A stretch of DNA of 64,000 bases from Candidatus Woesebacteria bacterium UBA5941 (GTDB lineage: Bacteria; Patescibacteriota; Microgenomatia; UBA8517): positions 33,460 through 97,459 of the forward strand of contig DJCV01000013.1 of NCBI GenBank assembly GCA_002430735.1. The letters are read 5' to 3'. Numbering within the stretch: position 1 is the stretch's first letter; every line of letters starts with the position of its first letter. The position numbers and the translations under genes are program-made. The notes beneath the pieces were generated by a model, which was given only the letters and a program-made list of their open reading frames with translations, was not told where the DNA came from and ran no database searches. Of the stretch, positions 16,901 to 48,927 are shown piece by piece.

Positions 16901-19900
16901 TAAAGTGGACTGACGCAGGTGGGTGGGCGTGTGCAACTGACACCTCTGGGAGTGGATCAGCTGCCGTTCAAGAAGGAGACTCAGGGGTCGTCGCCTCACT
17001 TTCGACACTCGACTTTTTGGCAGCAGACTTTATCGTTAGCGAGAGTCCATCTGGTGAGGCAAATATTAGTCTTGATTATGCAAATTCAGGTGTCACCCGT
17101 GTCGGGCAAGCTGAAACAGTAACCGGTGGCTGGACGTTTAATACTGCGGCAACTACCTTCACTACAGCAATTGACGTAAACTCCGCATCAACGGTCGCAG
17201 GCTTAACGGTTGACGGAAACGGCAGCCTCTCTGTATCAAATGGTTCACTTGATGGGGCACTTTCTCTTTCAGGAACCACCAGCGATAATGGACTGCAAAT
17301 TGGTCTGACAAACGGAACAAGTGGAGGAACTCAAAACATTGCCTACTTTGATAATGCTGCATCGAGCGGTACTACTGAAAGCATTTTGGTTATTGATAAC
17401 AGTGATACTGACACCGCTGTTACGAATGCAATTGAATTTATAAATGCAGGTGGAGGTTTTACCAATCTGTTTAATGTCGCGGGGACAACTATTAGTTCTG
17501 GTGAGTTCACACTTCTCGATGGACGTGATACAGCACTTGTCGATACAACTGATGCTGTATCAACCGCTATTACTGGTACAGGCACATTAACTGCAGGGGC
17601 AACAGGAGCTGGATTTACCATTAACTTCGGAACATCAACTCTCTCGGGCAATATCACGGGAACTAATATCTCAGGTGTAGATATTTCAGATGATACTAAT
17701 CTTACGGTGACAAATGGCATTACTCTCACGGGCGATCAGTTGAGCCTTGCCTCAACTGCTGCCGGTGATGGATTGACCTACACAACAGGAGTACTCGCGA
17801 TTGGTTCAGGCGCGGGAATTACCGTTTCTGCTGATGCAATTGCGGCAACATTGGGCACTTCAATCGCGAATTCTGAAATCGACAACGATGCGATTGATTT
17901 TGATAAAGTGTCAGACACCTTAACGCTTGATGCTGCAACATCTATTACAGCGAGTGGTGCTTTGGGACTTACGATCGGTAACAATGTGACGCTTTCAGCA
18001 ACAGGTACAGGAGCCATTACTGCAACGGACCTTTCTTGTACTGACTGTATTGGTTCAGCTGAAGTCGGTGAGTTAACACTTGGCACAGACACCGCAGGAA
18101 ACTATGTAGCAACTGTTACAGGTGGAGCAGGACTCACCGGTTCAGGCTCAAGCGAAGGATCAACTCCAACCATCGCTGTTGGTGCAGGGAATGGAATTGC
18201 AGTTAACGCTGATGACATTGCCGTTAATCTCACATCAAGCGGCACAACTGGTTCTACTTCAAGCAATTCAGGGCTTGAAGTTGGAAGTGGAGGGTTAACC
18301 CTTCTTAAGGGGTGTAGTGATAATGAGCTCTTAAAGTGGACTGACGCAGGTGGGTGGGCGTGTGCCACTGATACTTCAGGAAGTGGTGCTGCTGCTGTTC
18401 AAGAAGGAGACTCAACCATTGTAGCCTCACTATCAACACTCGATTTCTTGGCAGCAGACTTTATTGTAGGAGAATCTCCATCAGGGGAAGGAAATATATC
18501 AATTGATTATGCAAATTCAGGAATTACCCGTGTGGGGCAAGCTGAGACAGTAACGGGTGGTTGGACGTTTAATACTGCATCCACAACATTCACTACTGCA
18601 ATTGATGTAAACACAGCTTCAACAATGGCTGGACTGACTGTTGATGGCAATGGTAACCTCTCTGTTTCAAATGGAACCATAGATGGAGCAATCTCACTCT
18701 CTTCTACAACCTCTGATAATGCGACTCAAATCACACTCACAAACGGCACGAGTAGCGGAACTCAAAATATTGCCTACTTTGATAATGCTGCTTCTACTGG
18801 AACAACCGAAAGCATTGTGGTTATTGATAACAGTGATAGTGATACGGCAGTGACGAATGCAATTGAATTTGTAAACGCTGGAGGCGGGTTCACCAATTTG
18901 TTTAATGTTGCAGGCACAACTATTTCAACCACAGAGTTTACGCTCCTTGATGGACGAGACACCGCTTTGGTTGATACAACTGATGCGGTTGCAACAGCAA
19001 TTACAGGAACTGGAACTTTAACTGCAGGTGCAACGGGAGCTGGGTTTACCATTAACTTCGGAACATCAACCCTTTCAGGCGACGTAACAAGCGCAAATAT
19101 TTCAGGGGTCGATATTAGTGCTGATACAAACCTTTCAGCCTCTAATGGAGTGACGTTAACAGGAGATGCATTAAGCTTGTCATCTGCAGCGGGTGGCGAT
19201 GGATTAACATACACAACAGGCGTACTTGCTGTTGGCGCAGGGACGGGTATTTCAGTTGCAGCTGATGCAATTTCTGCAACATTGGGCACTTCAATTGCCA
19301 ACGCTGAAATCGATGATGATGTCATTAATTTTGACAAAATTGCGAACGCGTTAACACTTGATGAAGGCACAACAATAACAGCGGGCGGTGCATTAGGGCT
19401 CACGATCGGTAACAACGTCACTTTGTCAGCTACCGGGACAGGAGCGATTACTGCAACAGACTTGTCATGTGCAGATTGTATTAACGGCACCGAAATTGGC
19501 GACTTAACATTAGGGACAGACACAGCTGGAAACTATGTTGCCACAATTACCGGTGGGGCAGGACTGACCGGTTCAGGTTCAAGTGAAGGTTCCACTCCAA
19601 CGCTCGCTGTTGGAGCAGGTAACGGAATTACAGTGAACGCAGATGACATTACGATTGCGTTAACCGGAAGCGGCACAACTGGTTCTACTTCAAGCAATTC
19701 AGGACTTGAAGTTGGTTCTGGTGGACTCAGTCTCTTAAAGGGTTGTACTGACACTGAAATATTAAAGTGGACCGATGCCGGAGGATGGGCCTGTGCTGCT
19801 GACGAAACAGGCGGGGGAGGTTTCACAAGCTTCACTGCTGCAGGAGACTCAGGTGGTGGTCAAACGATTTCTGACGGAAATTCGTTATCTATTTTAGGTG

Positions 19901-22422
19901 GAACAAATGGAATTGATACCGTTGATAGTGCAACTGATACCGTGACCTTAAACCTTGATACAACTGAAATTGGAACAACCACATTTGGATCAGGAAGCGG
20001 GATTACCTGGACGTTTAATGCAGGAGCAACGGACCCTGTAATTGCATTTGGATCAGATACCATCGACTTTACGGCAGGTACGACTACGCTCTCTGGGAAC
20101 CTCACCGTTTCAGGGGGAACAATTTTAGGTGTCGCGACCAGTAATTTGTTAAATTCAGTAACCACAACATTAAACTTTGCAGGAGCCGCTACAACGTTAA
20201 ACATTGCTGACGGTGCAACTACCAAAACGATTGATATCGGGGGCGTGACTGCTGATGGCACTGACACAATAAATATTGCAACAAATGCCACTTCTCCAGA
20301 TGTTATTTCAATTGGAAACGGGCATGGGGTATCAAGTATCGCGCTTACATCAGGTGACTCATGGGCAATTAGCGCGAATGGTGTAATGACTCTTTCTGCT
20401 GATTCATCACAAACCACGGCGATTGTTGCAACAGATACTGACTACACGAATTTTGCCTCAATTGGCGACAACAATATCATAGGGACAACTGCTGCAATTG
20501 ACCTTACAAACTTTGACGTTGCTTCAACCGGTGCGCTTACCTTGGTTGGCGGATTGTCTCCAGATATCACGACGCAGTCAAATAATAATTTGACTATTCA
20601 GCCAGGAGGGACTGGTGCAATTATATTTAATTCAAGTAATACTTCAGCGTCTGCAATCGACATTAATGCAACGGGTACCGTTGCCGGGAATGCGTTCACG
20701 CTTGATACTACCAACGGTGGTATTGCGCTCACTGCTGGTGGTGCTTCAAACGGGGATATTACGATTCTTTCAACTGATGACTTGAGTATAAATGGAACAG
20801 CAGGTTCTGTGGTCAATATTGGAACATCAGCGGTAGCTCAAACAATTGCAATTGGTGCTTCAAGTAACACTGACCTTGCACTTGCTGACGCACAATGGAG
20901 CATAACCGGTGCTGGGGTTGCAAGCTTTGTTTCAGGAACGGTACTCGGATCTCAAACATTTACAACAAATAACATCGTTGACAGCGGAGCTCTTACTATT
21001 AAATCAGCAACCGGAGCTAATGCCTTAACGCTTGATTCAGGGTCTACAGGAACGGTGAACCTTGGTACGAGCAACAATGCGAAAACTATTAATATTGGAA
21101 CGGGAACACAAGGGAATACTATTCTCATTGGAACAGACAATACCACCTCTGACACGATTACAATCGGTACTGCACTAGATAACGTTTCAATTGTGGGTGA
21201 CTCCTGGTCAATTACCGATGCGGGGGTTTTGACCGTAGCATCATGTAGTGGATGTGGAGGCGGTGGAGGAACGTTGCAACAGGCTTATAGCGGTGATGCT
21301 GACGGTAGTAATGCGATCATTTTAACTGACTCAACTGATGGATCTGTTATTATCCAAACCGTGGCTGGAACACAGTTCCAAGTTGCTGCAACTGCTGCTC
21401 CAACTGTTGACCTTGCTTCAATCACAAATGCTGGTCAAGGAGTCACAAGTACGAGTGGTGTTGACGGGTTATCAATAACCTATGTGCAAGCAACAGACGC
21501 AGGCGCCATCACCGGGAGTGGGCTCGATGTGACATTAACTCCTTCTGGAGACGCCTCAGACGTTATCCGTGGAATCACCCTTAACAACATAACCAGTGGA
21601 AGTTCAACAGAGACTGGTTTGTATGTGGGAACTGGGTATGATCGTGATATTGAATTTGCAGACAGTACCCCAACAATTAGATCAGCCGATGGTGCAGTAC
21701 TTTCATTCACCGATGGAACAAACACGATGGCTTCTATTAAAGACCAAGGGACTTATGCATTTTTAAACATCACTCCAAAAGGAACGGCATCCGATCCAGC
21801 GACTTGTGCTGTTGGTGATGTGTACGTAAATAGTAGTGACGCGACGATTAAAGCTTGTACCGGAACTGATACCTGGGAAGCACTCGATGGCGGTGGTGGA
21901 GGCGGAACTAAGGTTGTGACGTTACATCCAGAATTCCCAGGCGCAACCCTTACCGCCAACGGAAGTGCGACTATTAATGGAACCATGACCTCAGATGTTA
22001 CCGGAAGTGCTGATGGATGGAAGAATTTCTATGAATGGAATTCAAGTCAAACAAGTTTGCAAGACTATACCGTTGCTGTTCGGTTCAAACTTCCATCTGA
22101 CTTTTCATCGTGGGCTACTTCGAATGCCATTGTTGTTAATTATGTAACAGAATCAACAGCAAACACCAATAATAAAATTGATATCGATATTCGAAACGAA
22201 GACGATACCCCAGGAACGACCGTGACTACGTCTTCAGCAAATGTCTCAGGAGTTGCAGCAACATGGACATCCGTTGCCATTGATGACTCAGTAATTGACG
22301 ATGGTGCGGCACCGGACATTGACGCAGCGGGTGAGGACATCGTTTTGTTAATTAAGCTTTACTCAAAAGACTCAAATTACTCACGAGTTGGTGATATTGT
22401 CCTAACATATACTGCCCAATAA
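13939..22422 (+). CDS. Giant (2827-aa) membrane-tethered surface protein. It has two N-terminal cytoplasmic MerR/excisionase-type HTH domains, a single TM helix, tail-fibre-like motifs, 3.5 tandem repeats of about 475 aa, beta-helix-like G/T/S-rich repeats, and a C-terminal beta-rich domain.
   Basis: It is a single uninterrupted ORF. The HTH motifs are 'IRTAAEFLGVSIDTLRRWDKQGIL' and 'VSEAADLLGMSISTLRRLETRGKL'. The TM helix is 'IVASLAIFVVVSITTLTVLFLLY'. 'GYLAWDTSGNQLIVYDGASWGTL' resembles phage tail-fibre repeats. Repeating blocks include '...LKGC(S/N)DN(E/Q)ILKWTDAGGWAC...TLSTLDFLAADFIV.ESPSGE.NIS.DYANSG(I/V)TRV'. Confidence 0.85.
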   Translation: MPNDLPTEPKYIAIRTAAEFLGVSIDTLRRWDKQGILKAQRPNGKDRVFLVKDLERFKYAHPLQVSEAADLLGMSISTLRRLETRGKLVPKRDSNGRRIYNFAELARFAKNVPSDKVAVTQSEVNILTKDAVAARIEVDTILRRVRRVRSIVASLAIFVVVSITTLTVLFLLYPSETADFFELTEPEYVSNGVILNRSVLGVANSNEASGITPIIISLFRPLAKVSLNLVGQIDEEKYQIATRSHIIDGDSLLRSISSIEISDSSDFIITDTSVIHNLNAELLDGRQVGSNPGNLVVIDDNGKINPDLIDYSTVEVAFTIEDRSIGGAQIELDTIENENIANSAITSNKIEDGTVSSSDLADNAVITAKIADNAITGAKIDNGTITTSDLSTGLSFSSSTLIDLSAVTHTSTTPQGLVLPNASSANPSGPSTGEGYLAWDTSGNQLIVYDGASWGTLAGTGDITGVTAGSGVTGGGASGGVTVNVGAGNGITVNADDIAINLATSGTTGGSSSNSGLEVGSGGLSLLKGCSDNQILKWTDAGGWACSNDTGSGSTVSVEEGDSSVTATLSTLDFLAADFIVQESPSGEANISVDYANSGITRVNQAQVVTGGWTFNTAATTFTTDLIANGGITLASGETISNGSDSTITLGRNDAGTVTLNAKDDDATAALTILPGGAAALTLGGSATTGITLVTDSTGDSEVVLPASSIGNSELVNSGLTFAGNSGSGSVALGGTFTIVGAGINNAVYSGGTVTITGTEADTLASVTGRGATSSTALTLSSTSNAITVGTLTISGDAFTDLTGTGLTISGGALNTTLGVAIDSSEITDATIGNGDIANDTIDLDKVSDTLTLDAATSITASGALGLTIGNNVTLSATGTGAIVATDLSCTDCITSTEISELTLGTDTAGNYVATVTGGAGLTGSGASEGSTPTLAVGAGNGITANADDIAVNLTSSGTTGSTSSNSGLEVGSGGLSLLKGCNDNEILKWTDAGGWACATDTSGSGSAAVQEGDSGVVASLSTLDFLAADFIVSESPSGEANISLDYANSGVTRVGQAETVTGGWTFNTAATTFTTAIDVNSASTVAGLTVDGNGSLSVSNGSLDGALSLSGTTSDNGLQIGLTNGTSGGTQNIAYFDNAASSGTTESILVIDNSDTDTAVTNAIEFINAGGGFTNLFNVAGTTISSGEFTLLDGRDTALVDTTDAVSTAITGTGTLTAGATGAGFTINFGTSTLSGNITGTNISGVDISDDTNLTVTNGITLTGDQLSLASTAAGDGLTYTTGVLAIGSGAGITVSADAIAATLGTSIANSEIDNDAIDFDKVSDTLTLDAATSITASGALGLTIGNNVTLSATGTGAITATDLSCTDCIGSAEVGELTLGTDTAGNYVATVTGGAGLTGSGSSEGSTPTIAVGAGNGIAVNADDIAVNLTSSGTTGSTSSNSGLEVGSGGLTLLKGCSDNELLKWTDAGGWACATDTSGSGAAAVQEGDSTIVASLSTLDFLAADFIVGESPSGEGNISIDYANSGITRVGQAETVTGGWTFNTASTTFTTAIDVNTASTMAGLTVDGNGNLSVSNGTIDGAISLSSTTSDNATQITLTNGTSSGTQNIAYFDNAASTGTTESIVVIDNSDSDTAVTNAIEFVNAGGGFTNLFNVAGTTISTTEFTLLDGRDTALVDTTDAVATAITGTGTLTAGATGAGFTINFGTSTLSGDVTSANISGVDISADTNLSASNGVTLTGDALSLSSAAGGDGLTYTTGVLAVGAGTGISVAADAISATLGTSIANAEIDDDVINFDKIANALTLDEGTTITAGGALGLTIGNNVTLSATGTGAITATDLSCADCINGTEIGDLTLGTDTAGNYVATITGGAGLTGSGSSEGSTPTLAVGAGNGITVNADDITIALTGSGTTGSTSSNSGLEVGSGGLSLLKGCTDTEILKWTDAGGWACAADETGGGGFTSFTAAGDSGGGQTISDGNSLSILGGTNGIDTVDSATDTVTLNLDTTEIGTTTFGSGSGITWTFNAGATDPVIAFGSDTIDFTAGTTTLSGNLTVSGGTILGVATSNLLNSVTTTLNFAGAATTLNIADGATTKTIDIGGVTADGTDTINIATNATSPDVISIGNGHGVSSIALTSGDSWAISANGVMTLSADSSQTTAIVATDTDYTNFASIGDNNIIGTTAAIDLTNFDVASTGALTLVGGLSPDITTQSNNNLTIQPGGTGAIIFNSSNTSASAIDINATGTVAGNAFTLDTTNGGIALTAGGASNGDITILSTDDLSINGTAGSVVNIGTSAVAQTIAIGASSNTDLALADAQWSITGAGVASFVSGTVLGSQTFTTNNIVDSGALTIKSATGANALTLDSGSTGTVNLGTSNNAKTINIGTGTQGNTILIGTDNTTSDTITIGTALDNVSIVGDSWSITDAGVLTVASCSGCGGGGGTLQQAYSGDADGSNAIILTDSTDGSVIIQTVAGTQFQVAATAAPTVDLASITNAGQGVTSTSGVDGLSITYVQATDAGAITGSGLDVTLTPSGDASDVIRGITLNNITSGSSTETGLYVGTGYDRDIEFADSTPTIRSADGAVLSFTDGTNTMASIKDQGTYAFLNITPKGTASDPATCAVGDVYVNSSDATIKACTGTDTWEALDGGGGGGTKVVTLHPEFPGATLTANGSATINGTMTSDVTGSADGWKNFYEWNSSQTSLQDYTVAVRFKLPSDFSSWATSNAIVVNYVTESTANTNNKIDIDIRNEDDTPGTTVTTSSANVSGVAATWTSVAIDDSVIDDGAAPDIDAAGEDIVLLIKLYSKDSNYSRVGDIVLTYTAQ
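15300..19800 (+). repeat. Intragenic tandem direct repeats of about 1.35-1.43 kb, about 3.5 copies, inside the giant gene.
   Basis: The 'LKGC.DN.ILKWTDAGGWAC' block recurs at about nt 15525, 16870, 18305 and 19740. Copies 2 and 3 are about 85-90% identical at the protein level over about 475 aa. Confidence 0.8.
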
Positions 22423-31682: not shown

Positions 31683-32417
31683 ATGGTATCCTTTAAGGTG
31701 AAAGTTTTGCATGTAAAGATTTTTTTCGGTCTCATTGCAGTGGTTGGAGTTACTGCAGTTGGTGTCATCACATTTCTTCGTCAAAACCCTTCGGTACTGG
31801 GATCTTCAAAAGTGACTACCGCAGGGGATCCACAGAAAGAATTGGACCAACTTGTGGCTGAAATTAAAAAAGTAATGATTCTACCTGGAGATGAAGTCCC
31901 TACGCTTGCTACAGTATCTGAAGCAGAAAAGCTTTCTTCTCAAACATTCTTTAAAAATGCACAAAATGGCGACAAAGTGCTCATTTACAAAAAAGTCAGA
32001 AAAGCGATTTTGTGGCGACCATCTGCACGCTTAATTATAGAAGTAGGAACAGTCACTTCGAATGAGAAACCTGTTTCACCAGACAGTTCTGCGAACAATG
32101 AGACAGATGCATCTGCGAAGATGGATGCGCCGAAACGAGTACTATTTGCCAATGGAACAACGCAACCTGGGTTGGCTTCGGCAATTGCAGATCAGGCAAA
32201 AACGATTCCAGGAGTCGTAGTTGTTGATCGAGTAATTGCAAAGCGAACTGACTACGAGAAAACTATTATTGTTGATTTAACAGGGAAACGGGAACTGGAA
32301 GCGCAGTTTTTATCCCAAGAAATTGGAGGTGAAGTAAGCACTCTTCCTGAGGGTGAAGTAAAGTCTGAGGGGGTGGATTTTATGGTGATCCTTGGAACTG
32401 ATCTAATTTCAGATTAA
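31683..32417 (+). CDS. LytR_C (LytR/CpsA/Psr C-terminal) domain-containing membrane protein.
   Basis: It has an N-terminal TM helix. The C-terminal 'VLFANGTTQPGLASAIADQAKTIPGVVVVDRVIAKRTDYEKTIIVDL' matches the LytR_C pattern. Confidence 0.55.
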   Translation: MVSFKVKVLHVKIFFGLIAVVGVTAVGVITFLRQNPSVLGSSKVTTAGDPQKELDQLVAEIKKVMILPGDEVPTLATVSEAEKLSSQTFFKNAQNGDKVLIYKKVRKAILWRPSARLIIEVGTVTSNEKPVSPDSSANNETDASAKMDAPKRVLFANGTTQPGLASAIADQAKTIPGVVVVDRVIAKRTDYEKTIIVDLTGKRELEAQFLSQEIGGEVSTLPEGEVKSEGVDFMVILGTDLISD

Positions 32418-32492: not shown

Positions 32493-33233
32493 ATGGATAC
32501 TGAAGTGAAAAGTGAAAAAAAGAAGCGGCGTGTTCCTCAATTTTTAATTACCAAGATTCTTCCACTGGTTCTTGTTGCGACGATTGGAGCTGCTGGAATG
32601 TACCTACTTGTAAGCAAGAACCCGTCTGTCATGGGAATTACTACTAATAGTGAAGCCGACAGTGCGAAAGAAGTGGAAGCGCTCGTAAATGAGGTTAATA
32701 AAATAATGACGCTGCCTACTGATGAATCGCCAACGATTGCGACCGTGAGTGACGCAGAAAAAATTAAGGCTCAATCATTTTTTAAAAACGCTCAGAATGG
32801 AGACAAGCTCTTGGTATATACCAAAGGACGAAAAGCAATTCTCTATAGACCAAGCGATAAACGTATTATTGATGTCGGTGTTATAAACATTAACCAACCA
32901 CAAGCAAACGCAACTACTTCTGGGTCACAACAAAATATCACCCCTGCCACTAAAACATATCGAATCGCTCTCTATAATGGCACGACAACCGTCGGAGCTA
33001 CAAAAGAGGTGGAAGGAGCAGTCAAAGCAGTATTTCAAGACGCACAGTTTGTAGAACGCTCTGTCGCAGCCCTTACAGATTATGCGGAAACAATTGTTGT
33101 TGACCTGAATGGAAACCGTGGAGATGACGCAAAGAAAATTGCAGAAGCATTAAGAGTTTCATTGAGTGCACTTCCAGATGGAGAAGAGAAACCTGAGAAT
33201 GCAGACTTTTTGATTATCGTTGGTGGGCAATAA
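32493..33233 (+). CDS. LytR_C domain-containing membrane protein (paralogue of 31683-32417).
   Basis: It is about 45% identical to the neighbouring gene, with 'TVSDAEKIKAQSFFKNAQNGDKLLVY' and 'IALYNGTTTVGATKEV...ETIVVDLNG'. Confidence 0.55.
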   Translation: MDTEVKSEKKKRRVPQFLITKILPLVLVATIGAAGMYLLVSKNPSVMGITTNSEADSAKEVEALVNEVNKIMTLPTDESPTIATVSDAEKIKAQSFFKNAQNGDKLLVYTKGRKAILYRPSDKRIIDVGVININQPQANATTSGSQQNITPATKTYRIALYNGTTTVGATKEVEGAVKAVFQDAQFVERSVAALTDYAETIVVDLNGNRGDDAKKIAEALRVSLSALPDGEEKPENADFLIIVGGQ

Positions 33234-33260
33234 AAAAAGGCCGTTTAGGTAAACGGCCCC
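33232..33260 (-). terminator. Intrinsic terminator (9-bp perfect stem, GG loop) with the U-tract on the minus strand.
   Basis: On the + strand the sequence is ggccgttta-gg-taaacggcc, preceded by aaaaaaa. Read on the minus strand this gives a hairpin followed by TTTTTTT, directly downstream of the minus-strand ORF 33275-33592. Confidence 0.65.
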
Positions 33261-33274
33261 TTGTCGAAATGAGG

Positions 33275-33592
33275 TTATGTATTCGCTGTGTCTGTGGTTT
33301 TTTTGCGCCGAAAAAGCTCTTGTGGCAGCGCTGCCATTTTTTCTTCTGCTTTCGGTGTAAAGAATGCTGCGGCCTCCGCGCTCACATATGCCTTCACAAT
33401 AATTGCAATCCAGCTTAAGAGTGAAACACCAAAGAGCGACGCAATCAGCGTTGCCGGGTTTAATGTTACAACCAGTGGTGCTCCATTAATGAGAATTGCT
33501 GGAGTGCTAAGCACCCAGATTGGCTCAACTTGCAGGATTGCAGTGTCGTTAAGAGCTGCGGCACAGACGAGTACAAGTATTACGAAAACCAT
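33275..33592 (-). CDS. Hypothetical small membrane protein.
   Basis: The 105-aa ORF has hydrophobic segments and is followed by the intrinsic terminator oriented for this strand. The overlapping + ORF 33288-33617 is judged less likely. Confidence 0.4.
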   Translation of the reverse strand: MVFVILVLVCAAALNDTAILQVEPIWVLSTPAILINGAPLVVTLNPATLIASLFGVSLLSWIAIIVKAYVSAEAAAFFTPKAEEKMAALPQELFRRKKTTDTANT

Positions 33593-33678
33593 GATCTGCT
33601 CCTCTCAATTTCGATAGCCTATAATAGCATCATTCGCACTCACTGTCAAAACGGCAGCCTTGACGGGGTAGACCCAGT

Positions 33679-33906
33679 TTGATACAGTGCCTACACATGG
33701 CTGAGAAGAAAGCGCTTGATTTAAAAAATTTACCAGACCTACTCACAGTGAGGGAGGTTGCAGAAGTACTTCGTGTATCACCGCTCACGATCAAAAGATG
33801 GGGAAAGAAGGGTATTTTGCCTCCAATTCGTATTAATTCACGGGGAGATAGACGATATAAAAAGGAAGCTGTCCTTTGGAAATTAGGTATTACTTCTGAA
33901 AGTTAA
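33679..33906 (+). CDS. Small MerR/excisionase-type (HTH_17-like) DNA-binding protein.
   Basis: 'LLTVREVAEVLRVSPLTIKRWGKKGIL...GDRRY' matches the HTH family found twice at the N-terminus of the giant protein. The likely true start is the internal MAEKK methionine. Confidence 0.65.
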   Translation: MIQCLHMAEKKALDLKNLPDLLTVREVAEVLRVSPLTIKRWGKKGILPPIRINSRGDRRYKKEAVLWKLGITSES

Positions 33907-33982
33907 TTCGTTTCTCGCTAAAAATGTGCTTCCGCTCTTGTTTTTGACGTTTTTGTAGTATAATACGCTCAACTTCTCTTCT

Positions 33983-34903
33983 ATGAAGAAATCCCTTATT
34001 ACTGTCACTACTGTGCTGTCACTTGTACTGAGCGTGCATGATATTCACGCTCAAACAGTCGTTCCTACTGCACGTCCGCGGGTCACAAGAACCGCGACTC
34101 CTACCGTGAGTCCAACTCCCTCTGAAACACCCGTTCCTACAGTCGAACCGGTTCCTACACAAAGGCCTGATATTACCCAAAGAACTGAAGAATCAGTCGG
34201 TCCGCTTGAAAAGATTTTGAAAGAAGAATCTTTAGGAGCAGTATGGAAGGCTCCACTTAAGCATGTTATCGCTCGAGCAGTTAAAAACGGAGTACCAGCA
34301 AATACTGTTGTACTGCTTCTCTTGTTGCCTGTGGTAGCTGCCTTCGTCGCAGGTGCAAGACATTTATTAGGACTTCAAGGGTTCGGGATCTTACTGCCTG
34401 CAGCGCTTGCTATTTCATTCTTAGCACTTGGCCCAATTGTTGGAATCGGCATGTTTTTAGTGATCATTGGAAGTTCAACACTTGGACGTATGTTCTTGCG
34501 TAAGATTAAGCTAAGACTACACTATTTACCTCGAATGTCCTTGCTCCTTGCATTTACAGTGCTCTGTATTTTAGGCGTGCTATTACTTGGCTCAACGATT
34601 AATGTCTCAGGTATTACCAACGTCTCAATTTTCCCCGTACTCTTTTTAGTTCTTCTCTCTGAAGACTTTATTCGTGTGCAATTAGGGAAGAGCTTCCATA
34701 CTGCCGTCAATATTACCGCTCAAACACTCTTGCTCGCGCTTGTTTCATACTTCTTCCTAACACTTTCTGAAATTCAGATGTTTGCTATTAAATATCCAGA
34801 AATCTTAATTGGGGGAGTACTTGTCATTAACATCGTATTAGGAAAGTTTTCCGGGCTCAGACTTCTTGAGTACTACCGTTTTAGAAAGTTAATTAAAAAG
34901 TAA
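33983..34903 (+). CDS. Membrane protein with a signal peptide, a Pro/Thr-rich linker and 6-7 TM helices (a '7TM' receptor-like module of the kind linked to RimK-type ligase systems).
   Basis: The signal peptide plus 'PTARPRVTRTATPTVSPTPSETPVPTVEPVPT' linker is followed by at least 6 hydrophobic helices. It lies immediately upstream of the ATP-grasp/protease/RimK genes. Confidence 0.55.
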   Translation: MKKSLITVTTVLSLVLSVHDIHAQTVVPTARPRVTRTATPTVSPTPSETPVPTVEPVPTQRPDITQRTEESVGPLEKILKEESLGAVWKAPLKHVIARAVKNGVPANTVVLLLLLPVVAAFVAGARHLLGLQGFGILLPAALAISFLALGPIVGIGMFLVIIGSSTLGRMFLRKIKLRLHYLPRMSLLLAFTVLCILGVLLLGSTINVSGITNVSIFPVLFLVLLSEDFIRVQLGKSFHTAVNITAQTLLLALVSYFFLTLSEIQMFAIKYPEILIGGVLVINIVLGKFSGLRLLEYYRFRKLIKK

Positions 34904-34913
34904 CCTTACCACT

Positions 34914-36227
34914 ATGAAACTGAATCACATCCTAGGGCTGAACGCTCGAAGCCAGCATTTTACGTTCCAAAGTAACACCCGCGAGGGGAAGCGTATTGCA
35001 AAGTCTAAAATCCTCACAGCAAAACATCTCAAAAAACTCGGAATCCCTACACCGCGCATCTATAAAAAGTTTTTTAAGCCAGAACATATCATGGATTTTG
35101 ACTGGAAGCAGCTGCCTTCAAGCTTTGCATTAAAACCAAGCAAAGGATTGGGTGGTGGGGGAATTATTGTGATCAAAAGAAAGAGTAAAGACGGAAAATT
35201 CTGGACTACAACCAATAAAGAGAAGCTCACCATAGACGATATGAAGCTCCATGTACTCGACATTTTAGAAGGAGCGTTTAGTATTGGCAGTGTTCCAGAC
35301 TCAGCTTTTATTCAAGAATATGTAGGTCGTCACAAGGCATTTACGCGATACGCGTACCGTGGAACTCCCGATATTCGCGTTATCGTGTTTAACAAAGTTC
35401 CGGTTATGGCAATGTTGCGACTTCCCACTAAAGAAAGTGGAGGAAGGGCAAATCTTCACCAAGGCGCTGTTGGAGTGGGTATCGATATCGCAACAGGGGT
35501 CACGACAAAGGCAATATGGCATGGGGAACCGATTAAATATAAGCCTGATTCAGACCGTAAGCTCACTGGAGTCAAGATTCCACAGTGGACTAAGATTCTT
35601 GAAACGGCCGCAAAATCGGCCGAAATTCCAGGACTTGGGTATATGGGCGTAGATATTGTGCTGCATCCAGAACGAGGACCAATGGTACTTGAAGTTAATA
35701 GCCAACCAGGTCTCCAGATTCAGCTTGCAAACTTAAGCGGCCTTAAAAAGCGTCTTGAGCGTGTGGATGATCTCGATGTTCAAGGGTTCGAACAAGGCGT
35801 TCGTATTGCCAAAGCGCTGTTTGCTGATAAGGAAGTGGTTGTCAGCATGAAGGCAGAAGAGGGAATTCAGACGGTAACTGCAGTACAAGAAATCACTCTC
35901 CGAGGCGAAAATAAAAAGAAAATGCAGGTTATGGCAAAACTAGATACAGGGGCATGGCGAACTTCTATTAGTCGTGATATCGCTGAAGACTTAGGATTGT
36001 TAAAGCCAGGTAACATTTTGTGGGAAAAGCGTGTGCAAAGCAGCTTAGGACTTGAACGCAGACCAATTATTCTTTTGACCTTTGTCCTTGCAGGGCGCAA
36101 AATAACCACAGATGCATCTGTGGCTCAACGAGCGTCGCTCAAATACCCAATGATTGTCGGTCGAAAGAATTTGAAAGGTTTTCTTATAGACCCAGGAATC
36201 AGGTATAATAAAAAGAATAGAGTATGA
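34914..36227 (+). CDS. Fusion of an ATP-grasp protein (alpha-L-glutamate-ligase-related, rimK_rel_E_lig-like) and a retropepsin-like clan-AA aspartic protease.
   Basis: N-terminal ATP-grasp motifs are 'FALKPSKGLGGGGIIVI', 'DIRVIVFNKVPVMAMLRLP' and 'ANLHQGAVGVGIDIATG'. The C-terminal 'KLDTGAWRTSIS' (DTGA active-site motif) and 'MIVGRKNLKGFLIDP' are typical of retropepsin-like proteases found next to RimK-related ligases. Confidence 0.7.
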   Translation: MKLNHILGLNARSQHFTFQSNTREGKRIAKSKILTAKHLKKLGIPTPRIYKKFFKPEHIMDFDWKQLPSSFALKPSKGLGGGGIIVIKRKSKDGKFWTTTNKEKLTIDDMKLHVLDILEGAFSIGSVPDSAFIQEYVGRHKAFTRYAYRGTPDIRVIVFNKVPVMAMLRLPTKESGGRANLHQGAVGVGIDIATGVTTKAIWHGEPIKYKPDSDRKLTGVKIPQWTKILETAAKSAEIPGLGYMGVDIVLHPERGPMVLEVNSQPGLQIQLANLSGLKKRLERVDDLDVQGFEQGVRIAKALFADKEVVVSMKAEEGIQTVTAVQEITLRGENKKKMQVMAKLDTGAWRTSISRDIAEDLGLLKPGNILWEKRVQSSLGLERRPIILLTFVLAGRKITTDASVAQRASLKYPMIVGRKNLKGFLIDPGIRYNKKNRV

Positions 36228-37102
36228 AAATTACCCTCCTAACAACACTCCCTAGTTTAATTGAAAACCGCCGTATTAAAGAAGAAGTTGAGGCAAGAGG
36301 AGATACCTTTGCACTTGTGGATATGAAGGAATTCTCTTATAAGGTCATAAACGATACTCTTTCAGTACCTCAAATGGATGTATTACTTGCAAGCGATGTT
36401 GTTATTGTAAGAGGAATCTTTAATGCAGTGAAATCAATTGCTTCCCTTGTTGCCTATTTAAGAGCGAAAGGTGTTCGCGTGTTCGACAATAATTTGAGCT
36501 CACACCCGTATTCTATTGATAAAGTAGTTGATGTTTTTAAGCTCGCTTTAGCTCACATCCCAACTCCAAACACTGTGTACGCAAGGTCATTTGATGAATA
36601 CCCACAGCTACTGGAACAAGTAGGGTACCCCGCTATTATCAAATCAACACGGATGGGGAAGGGAGTGGGGGTAAATAAATATGACACAAAAGAGGAGGCC
36701 GCGCAGTACATTAATGAGCTCAAATCAAACGATGCGAATGCGAAAAGTTACCTTATTCAATCATACATTCCATATGAACACGACCTTCGTGTACTTGTTA
36801 TTGGTCGCACAATGTATGCGATGAAAAGAATACCTCAATCTGGTGAATTTAGGGCGAATTTTTCGCTTGGAGGCAGTGTCGAGCCCTTCCCTTTGACGCC
36901 TGAAATTGAAGAGCTTTCGTTGAGAGCAATTACTGCCGTTGGATTAGAAATTGCAGGAGTAGATATTTTAATTGAACCGAATGGAAAAAAGTACATTCTG
37001 GAGGTAAACCACACTCCTGGATTTGAAGGTATGGAAAAAGCGCTTAACAGTAATATTGGCAGTAAGTTTTTAGAATACGTTCTAGACGCCGCTCATATAT
37101 AA
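36224..37102 (+). CDS. RimK-family ATP-grasp alpha-L-glutamate ligase.
   Basis: It has 'GYPAIIKSTRMGKGVGV', 'YLIQSYIPYEHDLRVLVIG', 'GEFRANFSLGGS', 'AGVDILIEPNGKKYILEVNHTPGF', and an ATGA overlap with the upstream gene. Confidence 0.8.
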   Translation: MKITLLTTLPSLIENRRIKEEVEARGDTFALVDMKEFSYKVINDTLSVPQMDVLLASDVVIVRGIFNAVKSIASLVAYLRAKGVRVFDNNLSSHPYSIDKVVDVFKLALAHIPTPNTVYARSFDEYPQLLEQVGYPAIIKSTRMGKGVGVNKYDTKEEAAQYINELKSNDANAKSYLIQSYIPYEHDLRVLVIGRTMYAMKRIPQSGEFRANFSLGGSVEPFPLTPEIEELSLRAITAVGLEIAGVDILIEPNGKKYILEVNHTPGFEGMEKALNSNIGSKFLEYVLDAAHI

Positions 37103-37109
37103 TACCCAT

Positions 37110-38003
37110 ATGAAAATCCTTATTGTCGGCTTAAAAACGAATCCACAGCTTTATCGCTTGCAAGATGAGGCTGTTAAAAGAGGCCATCAGATTCACGGGT
37201 GTCTGACATCGGATCTTTCAATTGAGGCCTCTCAAAACGCATTTAAACCAGCCCTTTTGGAAGAAGACATTACCAGTTTTGACGTTATTTATTTATGGGC
37301 ACTTGGGAAACGACGATGGGAATGGTGCACTGCATGTTTATGGTTACAAGAACATTATGGAACTGTTATCGTAAATCAAAAATTAATTGATCCGACATAC
37401 AATTATTTTTTAAGTCCTGCAATTGATTATTTGCGACAAAAAGAAAACAAATTATTATTTCCAAAATCTGCAATTTTATTTTCATTAAAAACTTTAAACA
37501 AAGTTATCAAAAATTTTGAATTTCCATTAGTTGTTAAACCAAGCAATGGTCGCCAAGGCCGCGGCGTTTCTAAGGTACATACATTAGCAGAACTCTATAA
37601 ATCAATTGATGCGTTAAATGAAGACGAATCCCCAGCCTTTGTGTTACGTGAATTTATCCCGAATGATGGGGATATTCGTGTGTTTACGGTGGGATATAAG
37701 GCTATTGGGGCAATGAAAAGAACCCCTAAAAAAGGTGATTTTCGCAGTAACATTAGCCAAGGTGGCAGCGGAAAAAGTTTTAGTTTAGCCAAAAACCCTG
37801 AAGTGAAGAAAATTGCAGAAAAATTAAGCAAAATCACCCGAACTGAGATTGCGGGGGTAGACATAATGATCCACAAGAAGACTAAAAAGCCATATATTTT
37901 AGAAATCAACCCCGGTCCCCAATTCACAGGATTTGAGAAGTTTACTAAAATGAATGCTGCAAAAGAGATTATCCTCTACTTTGAGAAAATCGCGAAGAAA
38001 TAA
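37110..38003 (+). CDS. RimK-family ATP-grasp ligase (second paralogue).
   Basis: It has 'FPLVVKPSNGRQGRGV', 'VLREFIPNDGDIRVFTVG', 'GDFRSNISQGGS' and 'AGVDIMIHKKTKKPYILEINPGPQF'. Confidence 0.75.
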   Translation: MKILIVGLKTNPQLYRLQDEAVKRGHQIHGCLTSDLSIEASQNAFKPALLEEDITSFDVIYLWALGKRRWEWCTACLWLQEHYGTVIVNQKLIDPTYNYFLSPAIDYLRQKENKLLFPKSAILFSLKTLNKVIKNFEFPLVVKPSNGRQGRGVSKVHTLAELYKSIDALNEDESPAFVLREFIPNDGDIRVFTVGYKAIGAMKRTPKKGDFRSNISQGGSGKSFSLAKNPEVKKIAEKLSKITRTEIAGVDIMIHKKTKKPYILEINPGPQFTGFEKFTKMNAAKEIILYFEKIAKK

Positions 38004-38005
38004 AA

Positions 38006-38030
38006 ACGTCCACACGATGTGTGTGGACGT
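38006..38030 (-). terminator. Intrinsic terminator (10-bp perfect stem) oriented for the minus-strand gene 38056-38466.
   Basis: The + strand reads acgtccacac-gatgt-gtgtggacgt, preceded by an A-run. This gives the U-tract on the minus strand. Confidence 0.6.
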
Positions 38031-38055
38031 ATCCCCAATTTGAGCGATATCTATA

Positions 38056-38466
38056 TTATTCAGGCATTGTGAACTGGATGTCGGTTATGTTCAGGGAAAT
38101 TTCATGACTACCATTTGCATCGGTGATGTTTACGATGAACTGGTTGTCATCGCCTTCCCCGTATACATGTATCGTTACATTCACTCCAGCACAAGTGAAT
38201 GATTCACGCAGCCGCTCAAATGCGTCACTCAAATTAAACTGCATTTCGGTGTCAGGAACTGGGATTGCTGATAAACCAAAGGGTATTTTCAGGATGTGTA
38301 CCTTCTGTTTGCTGTCCGTAACATGGACTTCAAACTGATCTTCGTCGTTCTCCCCTAAAACTTCAATGGATATACCCGCGTTAAGAATACCTGTGACTTC
38401 ACGCAGTTGTTCAAATGCCGCACTGAGTGTATCCGTTACAGCCAACTGCTCATTATGAGTTAACAT
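38056..38466 (-). CDS. Hypothetical acidic protein built from two internally duplicated halves of about 60 aa.
   Basis: 'LSAAFEQLREVTGILNAGISIEVLGENDEDQFEVHVTD' and 'LSDAFERLRESFTCAGVNVTIHVYGEGDDNQFIVNITD' are an internal repeat. A terminator lies downstream. Confidence 0.5.
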   Translation of the reverse strand: MLTHNEQLAVTDTLSAAFEQLREVTGILNAGISIEVLGENDEDQFEVHVTDSKQKVHILKIPFGLSAIPVPDTEMQFNLSDAFERLRESFTCAGVNVTIHVYGEGDDNQFIVNITDANGSHEISLNITDIQFTMPE

Positions 38467-38553
38467 TATTGTCTCCTTAAACTCAAATCGGTAACCGATA
38501 GTGTACTACTCAAGCCATCGTAAGTCAAAAAAGTAGCCTATATTGTATAAAAA

Positions 38554-38589
38554 TGGTATAATGCCCTATCGTTTTTCTGCATGAGGAGG
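38554..38589 (+). promoter_or_regulatory. Extended -10 sigma70-type promoter (TGgTATAAT) plus a strong Shine-Dalgarno (GAGGAGG) for ORF 38595-39161.
   Basis: tggtataat lies at about 38554-38562. gaggagg lies 6 nt before the ATG at 38595. Confidence 0.5.
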
Positions 38590-38594
38590 CTGTT

Positions 38595-39161
38595 ATGTCT
38601 GCATACGAAAAGCTCGTTAAAAACCTCGATCCCGGCATCGAAGCATTCAAGGAAGGAACACTGCCCCAACGTCTGGGTGACTATGCCCAATTTCGCGTGA
38701 TGCTCAGGGCGTTGTTGATAGGAGCGGAAATTGACTTCACCGGGCATGAAGCCTGGTCTGAAGCACAATTTCGTCGTCTGGATCAAGGTCGCGGGCCGGC
38801 GGTGGTTGCAGCGCTTGGACGTGAACGTGCAGAACAAATGGTGCATGATGCCGTTGCATATGCCGAATGGTATATGGGCGAGCAGTATTCCAGCGTGGTG
38901 CTGGAAGCAGGTATGCGGCAGGTGTTGGCCGATGTTTTGGCGGTAGCCATCCTGGACGGTGAGCGTTCACAGAAAGCGTTCAACTCGCTCCAAAAGCGTG
39001 TTTTGGCTGGATATCGCCGGTTGGCCGAAAAGAAGAATGCATTGAAACAATACGTGCCAGCCATTGATGCCCTGTTTCAGGGTGACCTGCCTGACAGCGG
39101 TTTTGGCGCTACGCCTGTGGGCGGCCTGACTTTCGTCATGCACATGTTCGACTCTGAATAA
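38595..39161 (+). CDS. Hypothetical protein encoded by a compositionally foreign gene (about 54% GC, CTG-dominated leucine codons).
   Basis: The 188-aa ORF carries a canonical promoter/RBS upstream and a strong terminator downstream. Its GC content and codon usage differ sharply from flanking genes, and several spurious antisense ORFs appear because of the high GC. Confidence 0.6.
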   Translation: MSAYEKLVKNLDPGIEAFKEGTLPQRLGDYAQFRVMLRALLIGAEIDFTGHEAWSEAQFRRLDQGRGPAVVAALGRERAEQMVHDAVAYAEWYMGEQYSSVVLEAGMRQVLADVLAVAILDGERSQKAFNSLQKRVLAGYRRLAEKKNALKQYVPAIDALFQGDLPDSGFGATPVGGLTFVMHMFDSE

Positions 39162-41200: not shown

Positions 41201-41608
41201 TTACTTTAATTCAACAGTAGCTCCTGCTGCTTTAAGCTTTTCAGCTGCTGATTTAGCATCTTCAGCTTTAGCATTTTCAAGAACTGTTGCTGGAACAGCT
41301 TCTGTTAAGTCTTTTGCTTCTTTAAGTCCTAAGTTTTGATTAATCTCACGAAGGGCCTTAATAACAGAAATTTTGTTAGCTCCAGTATCAGTCATAACAA
41401 CTGTTTGAGTTGAGCTTTCGCCTGCGGCTGCGGCTCCGGCTTCAGCTGGTGCTGCTGCAGCAGGGGCTGCTGCTGCGACCGGCATGGCGGAGACACCAAA
41501 CTTCTCTTGCAAAGCGGAAACCATATCAGCAAGTTCTAATACTGAAAGATTAGAAATTTCTTCAATGAGTTTTTCGACTTTTGCGGTTAGTTTCTTTTCG
41601 TCTGCCAT
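41201..41608 (-). CDS. rplL: 50S ribosomal protein L7/L12.
   Basis: It has the Ala-rich hinge and the C-terminal 'ISVIKALREINQNLGLKEAKDLTEA...AAGATVELK'. Confidence 0.9.
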   Translation of the reverse strand: MADEKKLTAKVEKLIEEISNLSVLELADMVSALQEKFGVSAMPVAAAAPAAAAPAEAGAAAAGESSTQTVVMTDTGANKISVIKALREINQNLGLKEAKDLTEAVPATVLENAKAEDAKSAAEKLKAAGATVELK

Positions 41609-41625
41609 AGTTAGCTCACCTCCTC

Positions 41626-42168
41626 TTATGCATTCATACTCTTTTGTCGTGCATGAAGCACGTACACGAGTTTTTGAATGTTTCCATTTAAAGTGGACAT
41701 CAGTCCGTATAGTGGGGATGAAATTCCACCAACTACTTGCGCAATTAATTGATCTTTACCAGGAAGTTTTGAAATACGTCCAATTCCTGCTGCATCTTGA
41801 AAAATTCCTTCAACAACAGCTGCTTTCCATTTTGTTTTTTCAGTATCAGCCATGAACTTACCTAAAATTTGAATAGGAGCAACAGGATCTTTTTCAGCAA
41901 CTACAACAGCAGTTTGACCTGACAAAATAGTATCAGAGAATGCTTCTTCCGGGAGATTTGCGTTCTTCGCAGCAATTTTAATGAGGGTATTTTTTGCAAC
42001 AAGCATTTTTCCATTTCCTTCTTTAAGCTTCTTTTTAAGTGCTTGTCCCTCTTTCATGGTGAGTGTTGTGTAATCAACAAACATGACAGAAGACGCATTT
42101 TTAAGCGCCTCTGAAAGAGCGGAAACTTCGTTTAATTTTGTGTCTTTAATTTGTTTTGAATGTTTCAT
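41626..42168 (-). CDS. rplJ: 50S ribosomal protein L10.
   Basis: The 180-aa gene lies upstream of rplL and has an L10 N-terminal 'K..LNEVSAL...L...SS.MFVDY.TLT' pattern. Confidence 0.85.
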   Translation of the reverse strand: MKHSKQIKDTKLNEVSALSEALKNASSVMFVDYTTLTMKEGQALKKKLKEGNGKMLVAKNTLIKIAAKNANLPEEAFSDTILSGQTAVVVAEKDPVAPIQILGKFMADTEKTKWKAAVVEGIFQDAAGIGRISKLPGKDQLIAQVVGGISSPLYGLMSTLNGNIQKLVYVLHARQKSMNA

Positions 42169-48525: not shown

Positions 48526-48927
48526 ATGTCAGAACATGAAGGATCGGGTTCAGTAGATCTGGATGCGTTCACACCACCTGAATTACCAAACATTGGTACT
48601 CCTAACCCAGAAGGACATCTCCCCATTGAGAAAGACCCTGGGTATTTAAAATTATCTCCGGAAGATCGGATACGTGTACAGCAAAACACTCGCATTGCAG
48701 TGGCCGAGGGAGAAGATACAAGGTCTGGAATAGATGACCTTGTGAAGACTGGAAGTCTTCGTAAAATTGATAGTGAGGGTGACGAAACCCGTTACAGAGA
48801 TGTTTCAGGACAACGTGAATATGTACACAACTCACAAACTGGCCGTCTTACTCTCATTAAGGATGAAGATGGTGTCGATTATCGCAAAGAAGAGCAAGAT
48901 AGTAGCCGTGAAGACGAAGAGGAATAA
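48526..48927 (+). CDS. Hypothetical highly acidic protein.
   Basis: The 133-aa ORF is D/E-rich with no recognisable domain. It is weakly supported. Confidence 0.3.
   Translation: MSEHEGSGSVDLDAFTPPELPNIGTPNPEGHLPIEKDPGYLKLSPEDRIRVQQNTRIAVAEGEDTRSGIDDLVKTGSLRKIDSEGDETRYRDVSGQREYVHNSQTGRLTLIKDEDGVDYRKEEQDSSREDEEE

Follow-up and report, generated by a model that had tools for sequence, protein, structure and literature searches.

We analyzed a cassette of five genes at 33679-38003 on the plus strand of a 64,000-nucleotide (nt) stretch of contig DJCV01000013.1 from Candidatus Woesebacteria bacterium UBA5941, a member of the candidate phyla radiation with a small genome; this whole stretch is referred to as the window, and all positions are those of this stretch. 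The cassette encodes a small helix-turn-helix (HTH) protein, a seven-transmembrane (7TM) protein, an ATP-grasp ligase fused to a retropepsin-like protease, and two RimK-family ligases. A first-pass annotation of this DNA had described five co-directional, tightly spaced genes with these domains, and both parts of that description hold: the listing of open reading frames (ORFs) of the window places the five ORFs as described, with intergenic gaps of 76, 10, -4 and 7 nt, and profile searches matched all the named domains (HTH, 7TM, ATP-grasp with a DTGA protease, and two RimK). The domain-level assignment of the cassette is secure. The genes and domains are as follows.

33679-33906, plus strand: HTH ORF in its longest form, 75 amino acids (aa), TTG start
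33697..33906, plus strand: HTH gene in its preferred form, 69 aa, ATG start
33983..34903, plus strand: RloB-like 7TM membrane protein gene, 306 aa
34914-36227, plus strand: whole fusion gene, 437 aa
34914..35828, plus strand: RloC-type ATP-grasp ligase domain of the fusion, residues 1-305
35865..36227, plus strand: RloA/RimB-type retropepsin domain of the fusion, residues 318-437
35943-35954, plus strand: catalytic D344-T-G-A motif of the fusion
36224..37102, plus strand: RimK-family ATP-grasp ligase A, 292 aa, with a 4-nt overlap with the fusion stop
37110..38003, plus strand: RimK-family ATP-grasp ligase B, 297 aa

The cassette was compared with the 80 best loci from a scan of one genome per species, among which 77 fusions were aligned and 74 loci were judgeable upstream.

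The ligase-retropepsin fusion

The N-terminal part of the fusion (residues 12-285) matches PF14397 ATPgrasp_ST at E 1.5e-67 (228 bits, cut-off 31.4), and the core ligase scores 269 bits as an RloC-type enzyme (TIGR02291) vs 53 bits as a RimK-type enzyme. On these profile scores, the fused ligase is assigned to RloC at the level of the family, not of the orthologue. The residues K74, D247, E260 and N262, which bind ATP and Mg in these ligases, are invariant in 77 of the 77 aligned fusions and, judged by sequence, the active site of the ligase is intact. In an AlphaFold model of the fusion (predicted local distance difference test score, pLDDT, 80.8), the ATP-grasp body is followed by a disordered linker (residues 306-317) and a beta-rich C-terminal domain. 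Foldseek identified ArgX, LysX and RimK as the nearest folds of the N-terminal part, and the Legionella and Aeromonas ligases, which are 35-38% identical to residues 1-304, end at the start of the linker. The fusion proteins go by various names in the databases, including alpha-L-glutamate ligase-like protein, ATP-dependent zinc protease, and hypothetical protein.

The C-terminal domain is a retropepsin. PF05618 (Zn_protease/RimB-like) matches residues 371-432 at 31.3 bits (cut-off 27), the NCBIfam models of RloA1-3 match at E about 1e-6, and in Foldseek searches, the domain retrieved the RloA crystal structure 9g58 at E 2e-7 as well as Lpg0085. In the NCBIfam scan, neither the RimB model NF052261 nor TIGR02281 matched the fusion at E <= 0.01; the latter profile had been suggested in the first-pass annotation, as had RLAN, which found no match either. 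The DTGA peptide, AKLDTGAWRTSIS, is located at 35934-35972. In a structure-based alignment, K342, D344, R383 and R406 of the fusion correspond to K46, D48, R114 and R137 of RloA; close relatives of the fusion show little or no variation at any of the four, and D344 is kept in the window protein and in 59 of the 77 aligned fusions. In RloA, K46, R114 and R137 hold poly-glutamate, and the R114A and R137A substitutions abolish both poly-glutamate cleavage and complementation (PMC12239564). Because the fused protease keeps these binding residues, the chain that is made and cut is predicted to be acidic, most likely, alpha-linked glutamate, and this chemistry can be considered moderately supported by the protein alignments.

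The retropepsin domain is part of a 437-aa protein without a signal peptide or a transmembrane (TM) segment, and the same is true of 79 of the 80 related loci; therefore, the fused protease is predicted to be cytoplasmic, not periplasmic. Autoprocessing of the fusion at the linker (..KAEEG..) was considered and set aside because RloA cuts only runs of at least 8 consecutive Glu residues.

A conserved gene pair in Patescibacteria

A protein search with the fusion yielded 6195 clusters at E <= 1e-5, of which the top 120 range from 425 to 468 aa in length and share 61-69% identity with the window fusion. Relatives of the fusion are present in at least 587 species-level genomes (one genome per species), and the best 80 of these match over the full length. 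The hosts of the best 80 are Woesebacteria, Blackburnbacteria, Shapirobacteria, unclassified Patescibacteria, and metagenome-assembled genomes (MAGs) with doubtful proteobacterial labels; essentially all carriers of the fusion are Patescibacteria. The MAGs in question are titled "uncultured Gammaproteobacteria" or "Pseudomonadales bacterium" (survey loci L005, L006, L009, L011, L012 and others) and encode fusions with 40-66% identity; the loci of this kind that were examined (for example, L006, L009 and L011) have a Woesebacteria-like neighbourhood, and the proteobacterial labels of the cassette-bearing MAGs probably either serve as placeholders or are wrong.

The 7TM gene lies directly 5' of the fusion gene in 74 of the 74 judgeable loci, mostly, with gaps of -4 to +20 nt, a synteny well beyond chance. 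A RimK-type gene directly follows the fusion in 39 of 75 loci, with two consecutive ones in 19; of the 58 loci in the subtype to which the window belongs (see below), 40 have a RimK-family gene directly after the fusion gene, and 51 encode an extra ATP-grasp protein within the next five genes. Other recurrent downstream genes encode ATP-grasp proteins of other families, an S-adenosylmethionine (SAM) methyltransferase and a GNAT acetyltransferase. The core of the system consists of the 7TM and fusion genes, with the RimK genes as a common but variable add-on and the HTH gene loosely syntenic. The expectation that the five genes are conserved together is borne out for the universally conserved 7TM-fusion pair but not for the RimK genes, which vary among lineages, nor for the HTH gene, which does not belong to the core.

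Relationship to the Rlo and Rim systems

These protein families were reportedly first described by Iyer et al. in 2009. The NCBIfam models that match the cassette are named RloA (retropepsin-like peptidase) and RloB (osmotic stress tolerance membrane protein). The Rlo system was named in P. aeruginosa by Lormand et al. (mBio 2025; PMC12239564), where the secreted retropepsins RloA1-3 cleave stretches of 8 or more glutamates, RloC is a cytoplasmic ATP-grasp protein, and a mutant without the three proteases is relieved of its defects when rloB or rloC is also lost. Because of this rescue, the ligase and the 7TM protein appear to make what the protease removes. In Pseudomonas, Rlo affects osmotic tolerance, biofilm formation and antibiotic tolerance, and 96% of the RloB hits were found in Proteobacteria (PMC12239564).

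In the two proteobacterial rlo operons that we compared, one on a Legionella adelaidensis plasmid and one in Aeromonas caviae, separate adjacent genes encode a PF05618 protease, a protein of about 510 aa with PF14400 and PF14402, and a PF14397 ligase of about 315 aa, as had been anticipated for proteobacteria; the Legionella RloC scores 436 bits against TIGR02291. The retropepsin of the Legionella plasmid (NZ_LR134414.1; locus L084, 2556-3014; PF05618, E 2e-21) is labelled "RimK/LysX family protein" in RefSeq, apparently, a misannotation.

The cassette shares with Rlo the same three families, namely, a PF05618 retropepsin in which DTG and the poly-glutamate-binding Lys and Arg residues are present, PF14402, and PF14397/TIGR02291, and in both cases, the three functions are encoded by adjacent co-directional genes in one operon. 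Set against the proteobacterial operons, the profile hits also agree with the three peculiarities previously noted for the window, that is, a fused protease, the absence of the transglutaminase domain, and two extra RimK paralogues. The protease, which is a separate periplasmic protein secreted with a signal peptide in Pseudomonas, is located C-terminally on the ligase and in the cytoplasm here; the 7TM protein lacks the inactive transglutaminase domain of roughly 250 aa; the gene order is B followed by the C-A fusion instead of A-B-C; and the extra RimK-type ligases and the Patescibacterial host are also distinctive.

The Rim system offers the second comparison. RimK builds and RimB trims poly-alpha-glutamate on ribosomal protein S6, RimB stimulates RimK, and RimBK, a hybrid of the two from Desulfotalea psychrophila in which the protease forms the N-terminal part, has activity (Little et al., JBC 2025; PMC11957791). 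A cytoplasmic retropepsin-like endopeptidase paired with, or fused to, an alpha-L-glutamate ligase is common to Rim and the cassette, but in RimBK, an N-terminal protease is joined to a RimK-type ligase, whereas in the window, a C-terminal protease is joined to an RloC-type ligase, and Rim systems, with S6 as the substrate, have no 7TM partner. Cyanophycin synthetase and cyanophycinase resemble the cassette more distantly, in that an ATP-grasp polymerase extends a peptide C-terminus and a dedicated peptidase is present; the cassette has neither the Mur-ligase-like M domain nor a cyanophycinase.

Taken together, we consider it probable that the cassette is a Patescibacterial (Woesebacteria-type) ligase-retropepsin system of the Rlo/Rim family, a module, coupled to the membrane, for the synthesis and trimming of alpha-linked acidic chains. 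Neither the Rlo nor the Rim paper mentions Patescibacteria or a ligase-protease fusion of this kind (PMC12239564, PMC11957791), and full-text literature searches found no description of this architecture in Patescibacteria.

The 7TM protein

The 306-aa protein matches PF14402 7TM_transglut at E 2.8e-21, covering positions 312-507 of the 508 positions of the RloB model, and profile scans found no transglutaminase domain (PF14400 or PF01841) in it. Hydrophobicity, the AlphaFold model and the positive-inside rule all indicate seven helices with the N-terminus outside and the C-terminus inside. From the N-terminus, the protein consists of a signal peptide, a variable Pro/Thr-rich external linker, a short conserved external segment, and the seven TM helices, and it ends in a basic cytoplasmic helix (..RFRKLIKK). 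The cytoplasmic loops and this helix contain 13 Lys or Arg residues vs 2 Asp or Glu, and 60% of their alignment columns are at least 90% identical, compared with 21% in the external parts.

In the scenario put forward in the first-pass annotation, the cassette makes a peptide tag or signal, which would be exported and which the 7TM protein would then sense; the HTH protein would be the transcriptional output. Two observations fit such a sensor: the short external segment is conserved (16 of 43 columns at least 90% identical), and in the window, 76 nt separate the HTH gene from the 7TM gene. However, the profile scan found no kinase, cyclase or other output domain on the 7TM protein, and its best-conserved surface is the cytoplasmic one; only 10 of 74 loci have the HTH gene directly upstream, and in several loci, a divergent gene stands between it and the cassette; and neither an exporter nor a precursor-peptide gene is conserved in the neighbourhood of the related loci. 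We consider this scenario very improbable, and sensing by the 7TM protein does not figure in the Rlo/Rim-type reading that we prefer.

The HTH protein

The HTH protein matches MerR_1/HTH_17 at E 8e-10 and the BldC family at E 2.6e-10, which is under the family cut-off; gene callers and homologues point to the ATG at 33697, not the TTG at 33679, as its start. A relative is encoded somewhere in 24 of the 80 loci, but so seldom directly before the 7TM gene that the HTH gene falls outside the core of the cassette. The family is extremely conserved (..RINSRGDRRYKKEAVLWLLGMQSKEE) and is mostly encoded on the same strand, up to 5.5 kb 5' of the cassette (examples are L014 5726-5941, L015 56-271 and L054 3831-4049).

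An upstream HTH protein paralogous to the N-terminus of a giant protein had been taken as a link between the cassette and a surface operon. The resemblance is real (43% identity over 47 aa), but the link itself is weak, given the inconstant position of the HTH gene. The giant protein (2827 aa, 13939-22422, plus strand) starts with two tandem MerR/HTH_17 domains, an odd feature for a presumed surface protein.

RimK-family ligases and candidate acceptors

Ligase A scores 172.5 bits against TIGR00768 (cut-off 143.4), matches PF08443 at E 5e-31 and contains Rimk_N; ligase B, with 141.1 bits, is slightly under the same cut-off and matches PF08443 at E 8e-31. The two are 30% identical to each other. 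The ligases of the window score 47-54 bits against the cyanophycin synthetase CphA. The closest solved structures are the Pseudomonas and E. coli RimK for ligase A and, likewise, RimK for ligase B.

This RimK kinship of both downstream ligases brings up a Rim-like cytoplasmic system, in which the tail of a soluble protein, S6 or the HTH protein, would be glutamylated and trimmed, tuning translation or transcription, and the 7TM protein would act as an anchor or regulator. Like RimB, the protease has no signal peptide; the HTH relatives end in -EE in 9 of 24 loci (often -KEE) and in Asp or Glu in 16 of 24; and the genes for L7/L12 and L10 are convergent with the cassette, a few genes 3' of it, in the window (41201-42168, minus strand) and in about 40 of 81 related loci, a proximity that may reflect conserved Woesebacteria gene order or hint at a ribosomal connection. 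Against such a system, ligases A and B, with 92 and 78 bits, are far from the S6--L-glutamate ligase equivalog (PRK10446, cut-off 331), and the core ligase itself is RloC-type, not RimK-type. Moreover, the window HTH protein ends in ..GITSES, and the RimK genes are missing from many loci, the 7TM gene from none. A soluble acceptor of this kind appears unlikely to us. As regards S6 itself, a search with an E. coli S6 query gave 0 matches in the window and 83 related loci.

A scan of conserved neighbours for acidic C-termini singled out only the HTH family and the 7TM proteins of the sister subtype described in the next section. In the window itself, the sole ORF of at least 60 aa with at least four Asp or Glu residues among the last six is a very acidic ORF of 133 aa (48526-48927, plus strand; C-terminus ..SSREDEEE), located 10 kb from the cassette beside the L11 and L1 genes. 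It has no match in a Pfam search and is conceivable as an acceptor of the RimK-type ligases.

A sister subtype with a dead retropepsin and an acidic tail

The catalytic Asp is missing from 18 of the 77 aligned fusions, in which NTG or the residues His-Thr-His (HTH) replace DTG and the K and R residues have also been lost. In one clade, a carboxypeptidase of the PF08014 family, MATCAP, is encoded downstream: the 77 aligned fusions include 15 from MATCAP loci, of which 14 have a dead retropepsin, whereas 58 of the 62 loci without MATCAP keep the active form. Where the fused retropepsin lacks the Asp, it is followed by a MATCAP-like carboxypeptidase in 13 of 17 loci or, in L052, by an active stand-alone retropepsin. 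L052 belongs to the four loci that have neither MATCAP nor an active fused retropepsin; its fused copy reads NTG, and the DTG of the extra copy is intact. Stand-alone retropepsins with an intact DTG directly follow the fusion gene in L052 (8283-8714) and in L077 (8263-8724), an arrangement suggestive of heterodimers or of a fused copy that is being replaced. Overall, the ligase is nearly always accompanied by some peptidase. The window represents the other subtype, with DTGA present, a basic tail on the 7TM protein and RimK-family genes directly downstream.

The tails of the 7TM proteins follow the same division. In the set of 80 loci, they end in Asp or Glu in 10 of 16 MATCAP loci vs 5 of 62 others, and in -EE in 6 of 16 vs 0 of 62 (Fisher tests, p about 1e-5, ignoring shared ancestry). 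In larger samples, -EE ends 77 of 101 cluster representatives of the MATCAP-type 7TM proteins vs 0 of 119 in the window's subfamily, and the background among 945 other proteins of the same loci is 0.95%. An -EE ending is the classic mark of acceptors of RimK-like and TTL-like enzymes. Two further, independently annotated loci show the order 7TM_transglut, ATPgrasp_ST, MATCAP. The extra ligases of the sister subtype match the ATP-grasp region of CphA at 315 bits.

One possible, if rather doubtful, interpretation is a "tail code", in which the cytoplasmic tail of the partner 7TM protein would be the acceptor of the ligase and would be trimmed by the retropepsin in the window's subtype and by the MATCAP-like carboxypeptidase in the sister subtype. 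Its support comes from the sister subtype, where the -EE tail co-occurs with the MATCAP gene and the dead retropepsin; because the tail is basic in the window's subtype, only homology extends the idea to it. The RloB tails of Legionella and Aeromonas are not acidic, so that -EE is not a general feature of Rlo. The sister subtype resembles the tubulin cycle of TTL/TTLL ligases and MATCAP in combining ATP-grasp ligases, a PF08014 carboxypeptidase and a tail ending in -EE, with the difference that the putative acceptor is a bacterial 7TM protein; the window, with its basic tail, has no MATCAP gene.

Some loci with MATCAP show further variation. In one Patescibacterial genome (L080, 5394-9367), a 532-aa 7TM protein with an external PKD domain is accompanied by a 790-aa protein in which a full MATCAP domain is joined to the RloC-type ligase. 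Three genes 5' of the 7TM gene, loci of the MATCAP-type subtype encode a protein of about 625 aa with PF01841 Transglut_core, separated from it by UvrC and a holin-like membrane protein (L086 3483-5357, L087 3397-5268; the family occurs in 9 of 80 loci, for example, L052 2506-4419). This neighbour recalls the inactive transglutaminase fused in proteobacterial RloB.

Flanking genes and transcription signals

Upstream of the cassette in the window, a gene of the beta-lactamase family (PF13354, 30661-31662) precedes two adjacent paralogues (31683-32417 and 32493-33233, plus strand) that encode membrane-anchored proteins of about 245 aa with weak LytR_C matches, an envelope-related trio. Its presence would suit an envelope-precursor system, in which the ATP-grasp enzymes add amino acids to a lipid-linked precursor of the wall or of a surface polymer and the 7TM protein flips this precursor. 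The name of PF14397 derives from an association with surface-polysaccharide loci, and Pseudomonas rloA mutants have an altered cell shape and a higher sensitivity to cell-wall antibiotics (PMC12239564). However, the survey of related loci showed that the trio is not kept beside the cassette in other genomes and that no glycosyltransferase or Mur-type gene is conserved nearby, and the poly-glutamate-binding residues kept in the protease point to a peptide chain rather than to a glycan or lipid. We regard such a role as quite unlikely and prefer the Rlo/Rim-type module described above.

The cassette is bordered on the 5' side by a 445-nt gap with a hairpin at 33235-33262 and on the 3' side by a second, strong hairpin followed by a convergent gene (38056-38466). 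The candidate signals at its two ends, from a consensus scan and a terminator scan, respectively, are as follows.

33660..33688, plus strand: promoter-like site 5' of the HTH gene (TTGACG, 17-nt spacer, TACAGT, TG extension)
38006..38030, no strand assigned: GC-rich hairpin with a 10-bp stem, between the ligase B gene and the convergent gene

The cassette genes are presumably transcribed as one unit, and the hairpin at 38006..38030 is the likely end of the transcript. The promoter-like site is weak evidence because the count of such sites in the region is not above the shuffled expectation. TATAAT hexamers are present 8-19 nt before the start codons of the 7TM gene and of both RimK genes (in 33958-33982, 36199-36223 and 37085-37109), and inspection of the sequence showed no Shine-Dalgarno-like GGAGG 5' of any of the five genes. 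An Rfam scan of 33200-38600 gave 0 matches.

The convergent gene encodes an acidic 136-aa protein (minus strand; C-terminus ..FTMPE) that consists of an internal tandem duplication, with ..LSAAFEQLREV..ISIEVLGENDEDQFEVHVTD.. repeated as ..LSDAFERLRES..VTIHVYGEGDDNQFIVNITD.., and has no match in a Pfam search.

A model of the cassette and its implications

As a Rlo/Rim-type system, the cassette could work as follows. The ligase, at the cytoplasmic face of the 7TM protein, would build alpha-linked acidic chains, most likely, of L-glutamate, which would be free peptides or would extend the tail of an acceptor protein, and the RimK paralogues would start or elaborate the chains. The fused protease would pair with a second copy to form the active site and cut the chains internally; their length or turnover would thereby be controlled, much as RimB serves RimK. 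As the obligatory partner, the 7TM protein would either receive the chains itself or provide the path of the product to the envelope, and the output would probably be envelope or osmotic homeostasis, as for Rlo in Pseudomonas. Because the ligase and the protease are fused in one protein, it can be argued that they act on the same molecule and, because the fused protease is predicted to be cytoplasmic, trimming would occur inside the cell, at least in this case.

Several observations weigh against this model. The match of the fusion to TIGR02291 (E 4e-80) is under the trusted, or equivalog, cut-off of 314 bits, and the RloA models match the retropepsin domain far under their own cut-offs. The amino-acid specificity of the ligase is deduced solely from the substrate-binding residues of the protease, and co-transcription is read from gene spacing only. 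The tail of the 7TM protein in the window is basic, not acidic, and because its fold has no solved relative, a role in transport or as an acceptor is not readable from the structure. Furthermore, Rlo and the cassette may act at different steps because the Pseudomonas protease is periplasmic and that of the window is cytoplasmic.

The Rlo paper describes the system as essentially proteobacterial, and yet a streamlined form of it is among the better-conserved gene pairs of Woesebacteria-like Patescibacteria, with 60-69% identity between fusion proteins in many genomes. The value of the cassette lies in the constraints it places on how the entire Rlo/Rim family works and in the substrate hypothesis that comes from the sister subtype, the two natural subtypes being a concrete handle for finding the Rlo substrate. 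The presence of bacterial MATCAP homologues beside TTL/RimK-like ligases also bears on the origin of the enzymes that modify tubulin tails. The "tail code", if true, would parallel the glutamylation and tyrosination of tubulin and would name the substrate class of the Rlo system.

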